NCBI GenBank assembly: GCA_965248535.1
Contig: CBDFJR010000005.1
Coordinates: 1,024,001 to 1,088,000, forward strand
Source: Phormidesmis sp.
Lineage (GTDB): Bacteria; Cyanobacteriota; Cyanobacteriia; Leptolyngbyales; Leptolyngbyaceae
DNA: 64,000 nucleotides
Reading direction: 5' to 3'
The first letter of the stretch is position 1, and each line of letters starts with the position of its first letter. Position numbers and translations under genes: made by a program. Positions 10,638-16,227 of this stretch are shown here, piece after piece. A model generated the notes under the pieces. The model searched no databases and was not told the origin of the DNA. It saw nothing but the letters and a program-made list of their open reading frames with translations.

Positions 10638-11280
10638 CGCTGGCTATTCCTGTATAAATTGTGGAATACTGCTTGTCAACCTGACGATCGCATTCTTGTA
10701 ACAGCAGTACGATCGCGCCTATATAGTTGTGCCAATCTGTTTAAAGAAGCGTTGTACAAGACATTCAAACCCTGGCAGAATCGGTGAGGTGATGGTGTCT
10801 TGAGCGGTGTAAGTAGCGGCTCGCTTGAGGACTGCATTCTCGCGGCAGCACACTTCGATCTGTTGTAGTTCTCGGCTGACGATCCAATATTCCTCAATCC
10901 TCCCTGGGATGATCGGCATCGCTGAAGATGATGCCGGGAGTTGGGAAAGCTGTGTTTCGTTTGACCAATCTCGGAGTTCTGCACAAATGTTAAGAATAAC
11001 GGATTGGTGCCTGAGATGGGGTGCCCTATTGATATACTCACCGCTCTTTAGGAGGGGTGATTCTTGACGCTTCACCGACCCTACCGAAGGTCTTACTCTG
11101 ACCGTCCGTTTTAAGTCTCCCAATACCCTATAGAGTTTAAGTTTGGCTTCGCGGTCTCGTCGTTCATTCGTAATGCTGAAACCCGGAGACAGCACTTCGA
11201 CGATGAGTTCGGGTGCGCCGATAAAATGCCCCGCCATCTGATTTGCAGTTTGGCAATCTGTAAACAGGTTTTGTGTCTGC

Positions 11281-11925
11281 AAGTCTGCGAACTTTACGAT
11301 CTAACGCAGCGTAGTTAGGACTAAAAGCCTTTTCCCCATTGCTCATCACTGCAAACGTTTTAATCCCCAAGTCAATTCCGATGCTTTGGGTTTTGGCATC
11401 GATTACGACGGGTTCAACGTCTACCACAAAGCTAAGGAAATACCGATTAGCACAGTCTTTAACGACCGTGACTGAACTAGGCTCCGATGGTAATTCTCTA
11501 GACCAGATTGGATGCAAGTCCCCAATTTTAGCCAGATAGACAGCCCCGCCTTGAATGGAGAATCCGCCACGAGTGAGTCGTGCGGATTGCCTTCCTGTCT
11601 TCTTTTTGAATCTAGGGCTGCCTAACTTTTTCCCTTTTCGGTTGCCTTGAAGCGAGTCGAAAAAGTTTTTGTAGGCAACTCCTAAATCAGCAACCGACTG
11701 CTGCAATGGAATGTTTGAAACTTCAGACAGCCATTCTCGCTCAATCGTTTTCTTCGCTTGAGTAATGACCAACTTTTGCAAGTCGCCATTCTTAGGCAGC
11801 TTCTCAGCTTGTTTGCAAAGCGCTAGAGCATCGTTCCACACGACCCGAACGCAACCAAACAACTGAGCTAAACGCTGTCGCTGTGGGTCGGTCGGATAGA
11901 AACGGTACGAGTATCTTGCTTTCAT
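11281..11925 (-). pseudogene. tnpB: Truncated TnpB
   Basis: MKARYSYRFYP, FGCVRVVWN, PRFKKK and GIDLGIK are present. The sequence breaks after DRKVRRL; RuvC-II, zinc finger and RuvC-III are missing. Confidence 0.85.
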
Positions 11926-11959
11926 GCTACCATTGTATATCATAACGATAGACAATGCA

Positions 11960-12124
11960 ATGAATAAGAGTGTATTTTTTAGACTCAGCCAAGATGAGTT
12001 GGATCTGCTAGAGGTTTACTGCAAAGCTACGAAGCGAACAAAATCCGACGTACTAAGGGAACTCATTAGAAGTCTTAAAATTAAGAAAAGCCGTCCTAGA
12101 GGAGCGGGGCTTGAATCCCATTAA
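11960..12124 (+). CDS. Ribbon-helix-helix (CopG-like) protein inside the IS, divergent from tnpB
   Basis: VFFRLSQDELDLLEVYCKATKRTKSDVLRELIRSL pattern. Confidence 0.75.
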   Translation: MNKSVFFRLSQDELDLLEVYCKATKRTKSDVLRELIRSLKIKKSRPRGAGLESH

Positions 12125-12404: not shown

Positions 12405-13751
12405 TTAAACGATTTGCCGTAGCGCTTCTGCAACTTCTTGTGCTGAAGTGTAGCGATCGCCAACCTCAGGGTGCGTCAGCTTGCGAATCACCTGCACAAT
12501 TTCGGGAGTCAGCCCCGGCACATATTCAGCATAAAAGCGATAGCCCTGCTCTCGATAGCGATAAAACTCGCCCGGATCTTGACCCGACAGCAAAAATGCC
12601 AGCGTTGTCCCTAAAGAATATAAATCTGAAGCCGGACTGGTTTTGCCCTCATGCTGCTCTGGGGCGCTGTAGCCGATCGTGCTCGTCCGGTTTTTGGCTT
12701 CTAACCCTACCCCTCTGACGGCCCCAAAATCAATTAGAGAAATTTCGCGAAACGCCGTCGGAGTCGATCGTCGAATCAAATTATGGGGTCTCAGATCTTG
12801 ATGCAAAACTTGGGGCAGCGACTCATGTAAATACTCTAAGACTTCACACAGTTCCAGCATCCACCCGATCGCTTGTTTTTGGGAAATGGCTCCCCATTTA
12901 GTCACTTGCTGAAAGAGCGATCGACCAGAGATCAACTCCACCACAAGATAAGGCTGCGGCCCGATCGTAAAAAAATCTAGCACTTGAGGCAAACTCGGAT
13001 GACTCAGTTGACTGAGAGCCTTAGCCTCACGCTCAAATAGATCAACGGCTTTGGGGTGCTTGACCCACTCAGCATTTAAAGTTTTGAGCACCCGATGCTT
13101 GCCCTGTCGCCAAACCAGATAGGTGCAACCCATTTCGCCTTCACCTAAAAGCTTCACCACTTGATAATTGCCGATCGTCTGCTGCACACTCAAAGGCGCA
13201 CCGCAATCAATGCAAAACCGAAAATCGGGCGTTTTGCGAAGATGCTCACAGGTGACACCGCTCACTAAACTGAGCTTTTCGCTGGGTAACTCCATCGCCG
13301 TTGACCGCTCAGGAATCTGAATCTCAAACCCTTCTATCGCAGACAGAGGTTGTGTCGTGTCTGTGTCAGGAGTTGCCGGAGTTGCATCAGGCTGAACTCG
13401 CTGCGACAGCGTGCGCTCACCCGCTAACTTGTCGGCCTCATGGCTAGCCGAATCTCCAATGTGAATTTGAATATTAGGGCCCGATCGGGCTAATCGAATG
13501 ATCATGCCATTTCTAACGGGCACCTGCGTCATGCGCTTGCCGTCTAGATAGGTGCCATTCGCGCCCAAGCTTTCGACCTCCCAGACAGAATTGATCCGCC
13601 GCAGTTCGACGTGATATCGCGAGACGACAGCACTATAGAGAACGACCTGATTATCGGTCGATCGCCCAATGCGAATCACCGATTCATCATCAAACGTCCA
13701 ACATTGAACGGGCTTTAACTGGACAGGGTGCAAAAGGGTCAGAGTAATCAC
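12405..13751 (-). CDS. FHA-domain Ser/Thr protein kinase
   Basis: IGRS/VSRYH/NGT FHA motifs, a Cys/His knuckle, and kinase motifs LGEGEMG, VLK, HQDLRPHN, DFG and YSAPE. Confidence 0.9.
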   Translation of the reverse strand: MITLTLLHPVQLKPVQCWTFDDESVIRIGRSTDNQVVLYSAVVSRYHVELRRINSVWEVESLGANGTYLDGKRMTQVPVRNGMIIRLARSGPNIQIHIGDSASHEADKLAGERTLSQRVQPDATPATPDTDTTQPLSAIEGFEIQIPERSTAMELPSEKLSLVSGVTCEHLRKTPDFRFCIDCGAPLSVQQTIGNYQVVKLLGEGEMGCTYLVWRQGKHRVLKTLNAEWVKHPKAVDLFEREAKALSQLSHPSLPQVLDFFTIGPQPYLVVELISGRSLFQQVTKWGAISQKQAIGWMLELCEVLEYLHESLPQVLHQDLRPHNLIRRSTPTAFREISLIDFGAVRGVGLEAKNRTSTIGYSAPEQHEGKTSPASDLYSLGTTLAFLLSGQDPGEFYRYREQGYRFYAEYVPGLTPEIVQVIRKLTHPEVGDRYTSAQEVAEALRQIV

Positions 13752-13926
13752 ATTAGCGCCGCAGAGTCTGGATACGCAGACAGAATGACAAGACTGCTCA
13801 TGTCTAGATGGGTTGAAGTCTAAATTCTGCTTTAAGAAAAGCGGTCAAAATGCGGAATGTCACCACTTTAACTCAGACTAGATTCTTCTGAACAGCTTTT
13901 TTAAAGTCAAAAAAGATACTCGTTAC

Positions 13927-15439
13927 CTAATTTGCCGGGAATGCGCCCGCCATAGCTGTACTCAGCTTGGCAGTGGGATGAAAGGCAAGGCAGTGACGAA
14001 TTGCTGCCTTGAACCAGTTGAAGCGTAGCTGAAACGCGAGGAACGCCTTCGGCTAGAGCTACGCAATGGCAGCGATGAGAAACTGCCCATCTCTTAGATA
14101 TCATGACGCAGAATTGCGATACACTTGCATTGGTTACGCTAGGAAGTAGAGCGTAAATATGTTGGTACTGGAGGCAAAACTTAAGGGCGAAAAACAGCAG
14201 TTCGAGTTGCTTAATGAAGCAATCCGCACCGCTCGATTTGTCCAGAATTCCTGCCTCCGATACTGGATGGACAACCGGGGAGTCAACAAATACGATTTGT
14301 ACAAACTCTGCAAAGAGCTTGCTGCAAACATTGAGTTTCCCTGGTGCAAGCAGCTCAACTCGCAAGCCCGTCAAGCCCATGCCGAACGAGCCTGGTCTGC
14401 CATTTCTCGGTTCTTCGAGAACTGCAAAAAGCAGATTCCTGGCAAGAAAGGCTATCCCCAATTCAAACGCCACCAAACCCGCGCTTCTGTGGAGTACAAG
14501 ACCACGGGCTGGAAGTTGTCTCCGTGCCGACAATTCATCACCTTCACCGATGGATTTAAGGCGGGGCAGTTCAAGATGTGGGGCACTCGCGATTTGCACT
14601 TCTACCAGGTTGAGCAAATCAATCGAGTTAGAGTGGTGCGGCGCAGTGACGGCTACTATGTCCAGTTCTGCATGGATGTCGAGCGCAGTGAGGAACGAGA
14701 GCCAACCCGTCACACGGTCGGGCTGGATGTGGGATTGGCTCACTTCTTGACCGACAGCGATGGCGTTCAGGTTGAGAATCCGCGTCATCTTCGCAAGGCG
14801 GAACGTCGATTGAAGAAAGTTCAGCGTCGTGTCAGTCGCAAGCAGAAAGGGTCTGTCAATCGGAGAAAAGCGGTCAATCGTTTGGGTAGGGCGCATCTGA
14901 AAGTTCAACGTCAACGTAAAGACTTTGCCTGTAAGTTGGCAAGGTGCGTAGTGAAGTCTAACGACCTCGTGGCGTATGAAGACTTGAAGATCCGCAATTT
15001 GGTCAAAAACCACCATTTGGCGAAGTCGATTAGTGATGCGGCTTGGGGCGAGTTTCGCCGTTGGATTGAGTATTTTGGCAAAGTGTTTGGAGTTGTCACC
15101 ATTGCGGTTGCGCCCCAATACACGAGCCAAGATTGCTCGAACTGCGGTCAGCGAGTCAAAAAGGCGTTGAGTCAACGAACCCACGTTTGTCCGCATTGCG
15201 GATACGTGGCAGACCGCGACCACAACGCCGCGATTAACATCTTGAATAAGGCAATCAGTACGGTGGGGCACATCGTAACTGCTGCACCCGATGCAGAAAA
15301 CGCCTGTGGAGAGTCCGACCTCTGTGCTCTGCGGGAAACCGTTGAACATAAGTTGTCTCGTTGAAGCAGGAATTTCAGAGAGCGATCTTTGGAATCCCCC
15401 ACTATATCGGTACTCCGATTAGCGGCGGGAGGATGTCAA
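13927..15439 (+). mobile_element. tnpB-only IS200/IS605-family element
   Basis: Preceded by TTAC (13923-13926) and ends GGGAGGATGTCAA. No tnpA and no target duplication. The empty site reconstructs the host gene end. Confidence 0.85.
14159..15364 (+). CDS. tnpB: RNA-guided endonuclease TnpB, apparently intact
   Basis: RuvC D-E-D triad (GLDVG, AYEDL, DRDHNAA) and zinc finger CSNC...CPHC. Confidence 0.95.
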   Translation: MLVLEAKLKGEKQQFELLNEAIRTARFVQNSCLRYWMDNRGVNKYDLYKLCKELAANIEFPWCKQLNSQARQAHAERAWSAISRFFENCKKQIPGKKGYPQFKRHQTRASVEYKTTGWKLSPCRQFITFTDGFKAGQFKMWGTRDLHFYQVEQINRVRVVRRSDGYYVQFCMDVERSEEREPTRHTVGLDVGLAHFLTDSDGVQVENPRHLRKAERRLKKVQRRVSRKQKGSVNRRKAVNRLGRAHLKVQRQRKDFACKLARCVVKSNDLVAYEDLKIRNLVKNHHLAKSISDAAWGEFRRWIEYFGKVFGVVTIAVAPQYTSQDCSNCGQRVKKALSQRTHVCPHCGYVADRDHNAAINILNKAISTVGHIVTAAPDAENACGESDLCALRETVEHKLSR

Positions 15440-16149
15440 GACATTTGAAATAGGAACGAAACTTTGTCACCTTTGCCTAGGGCAATGCGATCGCCCGGAC
15501 GCAGCCGATGACGATTGCCCAACAGCAGCGGCACGTTATTAATGTAAGTGCCATTTGAGCTTCCGACATCTTCGATATAGTAGGCATCGCTCTCAGCCCG
15601 AATATCGGCATGAATGCGAGAGACGATTTCTGAGTTAGGGAAGCCAGACACATCTACATCAGGCGGGATGCGATCGTTGGGTTTGCCGATGTGCACCACA
15701 GGCAGCCCCTGCGGTAGCTCGATCACCACATTGGTTTGCAAATGCAGCAGTCTGCCCGACTGATGCTGCAACTGGGTTGTTGAGACGATCGGTGCAGACT
15801 CAGCGATCGGCACGGGCACGGGCGACCCAGGTTCAGGGATCGGGTCGTCGGGCGAGATGGGTGCTGGCGAGACCACTAGGGGATCGGGCGACACGAGCGG
15901 GTCGATCGCTAGCAGATCTGGAAAGCCCGCGCCAGACTCAACCACGGGCGATGAAACCGCCGTTGCGATCTGGCTTTCAGCCTCTGAGGTCTTGAGGTTA
16001 AAGCCACACTGACCGCAAAAACTGGCATCTGCTTGCACGGTCGTCCCACAAGTGGGGCATTGAGTCGTCGCTGGAAGAGGCGTATAGCAAGCCTCACACT
16101 GCACCGCGCCATCAGGGTTTTGATGGTTGCAATTGGGACAGACAATCAT
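15436..16149 (-). CDS. Double zinc-ribbon plus FHA domain protein
   Basis: Four CxxC pairs, a Pro-rich linker, and FHA motifs IGK, VSRIHA and SSNGT. Confidence 0.9.
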   Translation of the reverse strand: MIVCPNCNHQNPDGAVQCEACYTPLPATTQCPTCGTTVQADASFCGQCGFNLKTSEAESQIATAVSSPVVESGAGFPDLLAIDPLVSPDPLVVSPAPISPDDPIPEPGSPVPVPIAESAPIVSTTQLQHQSGRLLHLQTNVVIELPQGLPVVHIGKPNDRIPPDVDVSGFPNSEIVSRIHADIRAESDAYYIEDVGSSNGTYINNVPLLLGNRHRLRPGDRIALGKGDKVSFLFQMS

Positions 16150-16227
16150 GAAAATTTCCCCATTCACCAAACCTATGATAAGGGAAGAGTTTTAAGTTTG
16201 AGGGTTAAGTTCTGGCTGACCCCGAAC

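Follow-up and report, generated by a model that had tools for sequence, protein, structure and literature searches.

A tnpB-only IS200/IS605 element that exchanges the TAA stop codon of a cyanobacterial FHA gene for TGA

Background

The window analysed here is a stretch of 64,000 nucleotides from Phormidesmis sp. (assembly GCA_965248535.1, contig CBDFJR010000005.1, positions 1,024,001 to 1,088,000 of the forward strand). It contains a tnpB element that has landed on the stop codon of a convergent host gene, and this gene still ends in a stop codon. The locus raises the question of whether such an insertion is a by-product of the motifs at which these elements begin and end, or whether stop codons are sites that they favour.

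Boundaries of the insertion and the stop codon exchange

The insertion can be read directly in the window between TTAC at positions 13923-13926 and TCAA at 15436-15439. The TTAC (plus strand) is the left cleavage site and the predicted TAM of TnpB; it belongs to the host flank, the same motif is found 5' of homologous left ends, and its minus strand holds the original TAA stop of an FHA gene. The element itself occupies 13927-15439 on the plus strand (1513 bp), carries only tnpB (IS1341-type) and is flanked by no duplication. The host gene, at 15436-16149 on the minus strand, codes for a protein with a double zinc ribbon and an FHA domain (its longest ORF starts with the TTG at 16170, the ATG at 16149 being the likelier start), and the C-terminus, FQMS followed by the stop, is the same as in the two closest congeners. 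The TGA at 15438-15436 and base 15439 of the last Ser codon are all supplied by the element, and this codon changed from TCG to TCT upon insertion, both coding for Ser. As the preliminary description had proposed, both alleles read M-S-stop, with TAA without the element and TGA with it, and the FHA protein is unchanged at the site. Read on the opposite strand, TTAC contains TAA and TCAA contains TGA, so that the exchange of stops is a consequence of the end motifs.

The left end at 13927, originally deduced from a reconstruction of the empty site, was borne out by homologous elements, as the same sequence is found directly 3' of TTAC at two unrelated sites (L002 and L021) and directly 3' of TTAT in a decayed orphan end (L029). 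At the right end, the homologs L032 and L022 terminate in the identical GATGTCAA and then continue into unrelated DNA. The region 13927-15439 is thus confirmed as a tnpB-only IS200/IS605 element with IS608-type ends, inserted 3' of TTAC, ending in TCAA and lacking a duplication.

Downstream of the FHA gene there is a gene with an FHA domain and a Ser/Thr kinase domain (12405-13751, minus strand) that adjoins the FHA gene in the congeners and is now 1.5 kb further from it owing to the element. In a wider sense the insertion is not silent: it has moved the FHA gene away from the kinase gene, and the predicted RNA guide of the element is antisense to the end of the FHA mRNA. A promoter-like match for the kinase gene was found on the minus strand at 13910-13882, 13 bases left of the insertion and untouched by it; this is a consensus match only, with the first hexamer nearly conserved among the congeners. 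In the scan for promoters and terminators, the latter were at chance level (3 versus 3.4).

TnpB and the predicted RNA

The tnpB gene (14159-15364, plus strand) is intact and codes for 401 amino acids with the Pfam domains PF01385 and PF07282. The protein passes the NF040570 family model (300 bits, cut-off 100), falls below the cut-off of the narrower NF038281 (237 bits, cut-off 425) and matches the ISDra2 TnpB (8EXA) with an E value of 1e-45. It contains the catalytic RuvC motifs GLDVG (188), AYEDL (272) and DRDHN (352) and a zinc ribbon with C326 and C344; in ISDra2, D191 is catalytic.

Subterminal hairpins were found at both ends, with a z value of about -1.6, which is weak and not significant when taken alone. 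At the left, a hairpin at about 13946-13977 is preceded by the putative DNA guide AATG (13940-13943, plus strand), placed according to the IS608 layout; relatives have AATG, AAAG or AAGG when they are 3' of TTAC and AAAA when they are 3' of TTAT. The right end (15392-15439, plus strand) comprises the guide GAAT at 15392-15395, a hairpin and the cleavage site TCAA at 15436-15439, the minus strand of which gives the TGA and, at the wobble position, the third base of the terminal Ser codon. Among the matches listed, GAAT goes with TCAA in 246 surveyed loci and GAAC with TCAG in 11, in a count that required the match, although the GAAC/TCAG class had been visible in the raw sequence beforehand. 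The long left region between the first hairpin and tnpB (13978-14158) is also structured (z -2.3 for 13927-14161) and partly common to a few relatives, with no match in Rfam.

A putative omega-RNA scaffold was predicted at 15290-15439 (plus strand), overlapping the 3' end of tnpB. The structure of the last 150 bases is conserved, with compensatory changes at 22 of 30 consensus pairs (27 related sequences, counted without a shuffle control), and the z value for 15240-15439 is -2.6. The predicted guide would be the host flank at 15440-15459 (plus strand), which is antisense to the final codons of the FHA gene. Both this guide, starting at 15440, and the TAM TTAC are predicted as is standard for the TnpB of the IS200/IS605 family, the guide following Karvelis 2021; the identity of TAM and target motif and the origin of the guide in the right flank are described in PMC8612924 and 10.1101/2023.03.14.532601. 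In the genome, the first 12 bases of the predicted guide have a single occurrence, and no TTAC is followed by its first 8 bases.

Family membership and relatives in the genome

The element belongs to IS200/IS605 as a tnpB-only, IS1341-type member: it has a TnpB, insertion without duplication and hairpins with guides, and it has no tnpA. No TnpA ORF was found in 13927-14158. The source genome (G000) has 11 matches to Y1 TnpA; a pattern search of the assembly found no TnpA locus of the element's hairpin type. In the survey described below, a TnpA match was present in four of the 348 loci having 900 bp upstream, among the matches listed. There are no other whole copies of the element in G000; its relatives there are an orphan 92-bp left end and paralogs at 63-67% DNA identity. 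L029 (G000:C2:1721867-1721957) is such an orphan and decayed left end of this element type, located after TTAT and without tnpB. IS891 may be a closer named relative.

Two other classes were considered and rejected. An IStron is not supported, as no intron family was found in 13500-15800 by an Rfam scan with E values up to 1, and an IS607 or RAGATH-18 TnpB is contradicted by the model NF038280 (139 bits versus 350) and by the ends, TTAC/TCAA rather than a GG core. The only RNA-family match found was a sub-threshold one to RAGATH-18 (29.2 bits, gathering threshold 44.9). Elsewhere in the window, at 11164-12124, there is a second, truncated tnpB (minus strand, 263 aa, HTH_OrfB_IS605), with a small ribbon-helix-helix gene (11924-12124) divergent to it.

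Empty and filled alleles

In two (X1 and X2) of the four sequencing runs examined, from eight listed, a contig of the empty allele joins 13926 to 15440 and coexists with the filled allele. Both runs are from one study, and X1 is possibly the source of the window. The joint is exact in both (1513 bases skipped; side 30, both 0), in agreement with insertion 3' of a short motif without target duplication, and the listed flank contigs differ from the window by 0 letters. In X1 the depth was 11.9 for the empty branch, 11.9-12.6 for the filled contigs and 23-24 for the flanks, so that the empty allele makes up about 50%; in X2 the values were 20.1, 9.3 and 26-31, i.e. about 68% empty, these shares being contig depths and no count of cells. 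The filled-branch contig in X1 begins at 13897, exactly 30 bases before 13927, which, assuming 31-mers, places the branch after TTAC, with all bases through TTAC common to both alleles. X2 contains a second joint, from 13921 to 15435 (depth 11.1), that is probably the TCAC allele of a congener. No such joint was found in X3 and X5, where coverage of this stretch was thin.

The orthologous site was empty in all six congeners examined (L004-L008 and L030), with TCAC or TCAT, i.e. a TGA stop, at this position. The preliminary reconstruction, which restored the empty TTAC site by removing 13927-15439 and was open to challenge from any differing empty allele, is matched by the allele of the same strain; the six congeners do differ from it, yet they are other species, with ~77-90% identity over the flanks. 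As all six are empty and end in TGA, the TAA looks derived in this lineage, a change that would have made the site a target.

Over ~0.5 kb to either side, filled and empty alleles have identical flanks, and the joint bears no scar. The same would be seen if the empty allele arose by ongoing TnpA excision (donor joints) in carriers whose TnpB is weak or silent, and did not stem from lineages in which the element had never been present. We regard this as very improbable: a share of 50-68% far exceeds the 0.7% excision reported for a heterologous assay in the available text of 10.1101/2023.03.14.532601, and the element is devoid of tnpA, with no TnpA of matching hairpin type in the assembly. The insertion is real, precisely bounded and very recent or polymorphic, and the element is itself ordinary. 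In two samples the empty allele makes up at least half of the depth, so that any drive there has not gone to completion. Coexisting natural alleles with identical flanks provide a precise native guide, target and predicted TAM with which a drive by TnpB could be tested, and the TGA stop of the congeners is a natural candidate for the resistance allele.

Related insertions

We have compared the insertion with those of related elements, collected in two sets, for which regions were taken from the top of the listed matches (the best 100 of one listing for set 1 and the best 80 of another for set 2). In set 1, 299 loci with a TnpB match were reduced to 280 with a right end, 249 unique ones with at least 330 bases of right flank, and 248 without the window. 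Set 2, collected after the test had been defined, went from 184 loci to 171 with a right end and, minus 27 duplicates and 9 short flanks, to 135. Only four loci were viral, too few for a comparison with phages. When near-identical copies were followed outwards with no left motif assumed, 24 of 33 groups started at TTAC or TTAT and one at TGAC, the other eight stopping early inside the element. The TGAC group (L321) consists of two copies, and this target variant yields no stop. At the right end TCAA was found in 373, TCAG in 9 and TCAC in 2 of 384 among the matches listed, with the invariance of TCA partly built in because the right-end finder required it.

By open frame alone, a convergent ORF of at least 100 codons in frame with the TGA of the end was found in 18 of 248 loci (set 1) and 17 of 135 (set 2); for set 1 plus the window, the three frames had 19, 3 and 6 convergent ORFs. 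Pfam supported 15 of the 18 in-frame cases in set 1 and 11 of those 17 in set 2, several domains reaching the last few residues, and the out-of-frame cases with Pfam support are mostly near gene 3' ends (L160, L196, L207, L229). With a simple gene caller, 32 of 383 other unique insertions (8.4%), among the matches listed, are on a stop codon; 24 of the 32 have readable left ends and an original TAA was assumed for the remaining 8. The tabulation of flanks that the preliminary description had suggested, with stop-codon bias in mind, shows stop sites to be used more than nearby intergenic ones. Its view of the insertion as protein-silent holds at the FHA gene and fails as a family property, since the last residue was kept in 10 of the 32, ambiguous in one and changed, or the C-terminus extended, in 21. 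Chance alone would keep it in 45% (305/673 in G000), so selection for protein silence was rejected and the full silence at the FHA gene is luck.

Some individual cases are worth recording. In L132 and L346 a TAG-TAA double stop was hit, the TAG becoming TAT with one Tyr gained before the new TGA. The stops of msrB (SelR) genes were hit twice independently, by a TTAC-type and a TTAT-type element (L473 and L519). In L313 the element lies directly after an apparent tRNA gene upstream of tnpB (read by eye), with its other end on the stop of a TetR gene.

Use of stop codons compared with other sites

Per 1000 TTAC/TTAT sites available in the flanks of the same loci, there are 219 insertions at stops and 1.8 inside genes; the first 50 nt downstream of stops have 71-92, and the intergenic bins 48-186. 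The rate at stop sites is ~120 times the one inside genes and 1.6-2.7 times the one just downstream of stops, depending on the null. The gap between stop sites and coding sites probably reflects purifying selection. As gene calls relied on ORF length and not on annotation, and promoters and terminators make up many of the intergenic sites, stop sites that were merely among the most neutral ones should already show a modest excess. Genes co-oriented with tnpB also often have an insertion 16-100 nt upstream of them (121-186 per 1000 sites), perhaps owing to read-through from the element.

The excess at stops could instead mean that these sites are actively favoured or retained, the TTA- and TCA- cores being kept partly for this reason. 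Deletions clipping the right end would be selected against, as this end is the stop of the gene, and a guide within conserved coding sequence would allow homing across more alleles. Stops are indeed the highest of all bins, and against sites 4-50 nt downstream of stops the pooled odds ratio (OR) is 2.69 (p 0.0004). The excess over nearby intergenic sites appears in both sets (OR 3.3, p 0.002 in set 1; OR 2.1, p 0.067 in set 2) and, against all intergenic sites, in TTAC (OR 2.8) and TTAT (OR 2.6) elements separately. Furthermore, the end variants mostly alter the wobble-position base (TTAC/TTAT; TCAA/TCAG/TCAC), and the two independent hits on msrB stops fit as well. However, with a whole-genome null from G000 the OR drops to about 1.6 (32:31 versus 206:323), and at a cut-off of 150 codons the pooled value is 2.25 and set 2 alone is not significant (OR 1.68, p 0.26). 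Rates of 146-186 per 1000 occur in some intergenic bins, one pair of copies has a TGAC target without a stop, the TCA core owes part of its constancy to the finder, and 92% of the insertions are elsewhere than at stops. We regard an active preference for, or retention at, stop sites as unlikely. A bias in flanking context as the cause of the excess was rejected (mean weight 0.97 at stops versus 1.02). We conclude that the exchange of stops is a side effect of known end motifs. It recurs at ~8% of sites, and the excess left unexplained is modest.

A model for the insertion

The explanation that we consider probable is that the element inserts at any TTAC and that purifying selection then leaves stop codons among the safe sites. 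A Y1 transposase acting in trans would paste the non-autonomous IS608-type element 3' of a TTAC containing the TAA of a convergent gene, and the right end, closing in TCAA, would make the gene stop on TGA instead. No special stop-codon machinery would be needed in the element; copies within genes would be purged, and those at stop codons, where the end motifs invariably restore a stop, would for this reason survive about as well as copies in the most neutral intergenic DNA. TnpB together with the right-end RNA would be expected to cut empty copies bearing TTAC, favouring retention; as the empty allele still makes up at least half of the depth, any such cutting has not led to a sweep of the site.

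This explanation is supported by the exact empty joint found beside a filled allele with identical flanks in X1 and X2, by the IS608 ends TTAC/TCAA with shared sequence from TTAC/TTAT in 24 of 33 copy groups, and by the insertion rates at stops, in genes and in intergenic DNA. The out-of-frame cases near gene 3' ends, the lack of a synonymous excess and of a context effect, and the 11 Y1 TnpA matches in the genome argue for it too. It is weakened by the stop sites being the highest bin, which plain neutrality does not obviously predict, and by the lack in the assembly of a TnpA locus of the element's hairpin type.

A more far-reaching proposal is that stop codons serve IS608-type TnpB elements as a safe harbour shaped by selection. 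TTA- and TCA- would then be held for the TAA to TGA swap, copies at stops would be kept longer (the right end being part of the gene and the guide lying in conserved coding DNA), and hosts would escape by a silent switch from TAA to TGA, as in all six congeners, whereby the target of the transposase is lost along with the TAM. We think this unlikely; if true, it would parallel the IStron strategy without any splicing, and the naturally polymorphic site at the FHA gene would be a ready test of TnpB drive. Under the preferred explanation, insertion at any TTAC followed by purifying selection, stop codons can be tolerated as landing sites owing to the IS608-type end motifs; they account for ~8% of surviving insertions in this cyanobacterial clade, and such insertions often alter the last residue and separate the gene from its 3' region.

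Comparison with known systems

A literature search, with subscription reviews outside it, found no description of TAA-to-TGA swapping by IS200/IS605 ends, which is a weak absence. That repeats may supply host stops is already known from the pneumococcal BOX repeats, with 36 cases according to the available text of PMC3049150. As in our case, a mobile or repeat element provides the stop of the host gene there; BOX repeats are an unrelated class, without a nuclease and without a defined stop-for-stop motif swap.

The closest resemblance is to IS608 (ISHp608) of Helicobacter pylori, which, in the accessible parts of the descriptions, has the cleavage sites TTAC/TCAA (PMC3201880; PMC13565253), with TTAC in the left flank, TCAA at the right end, no duplication, and subterminal hairpins with 4-nt DNA guides (PMC3201880). 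The element described here differs from it in having no tnpA, a left guide AATG instead of AAAG, a structured left region of ~230 bp and a cyanobacterial host. With IS1341-type tnpB-only elements and the TnpB-omega RNA systems of ISDra2 and ISGst, as far as the available text describes them (PMC8612924; 10.1101/2023.03.14.532601), it has in common an intact RuvC TnpB, a structured right-end RNA overlapping tnpB, a predicted guide in the flank and a predicted TAM identical to the target motif; this TAM is TTAC and not TTGAT, and the predicted guide lies opposite the final codons of the host gene, in antisense orientation. Finally, IStrons (group I intron plus IS605/IS607) also leave the host protein nearly intact, in the available account of 10.1101/2023.11.20.567912, but here the harmlessness comes from a stop swap at the DNA level, in the opposite orientation and with no splicing.
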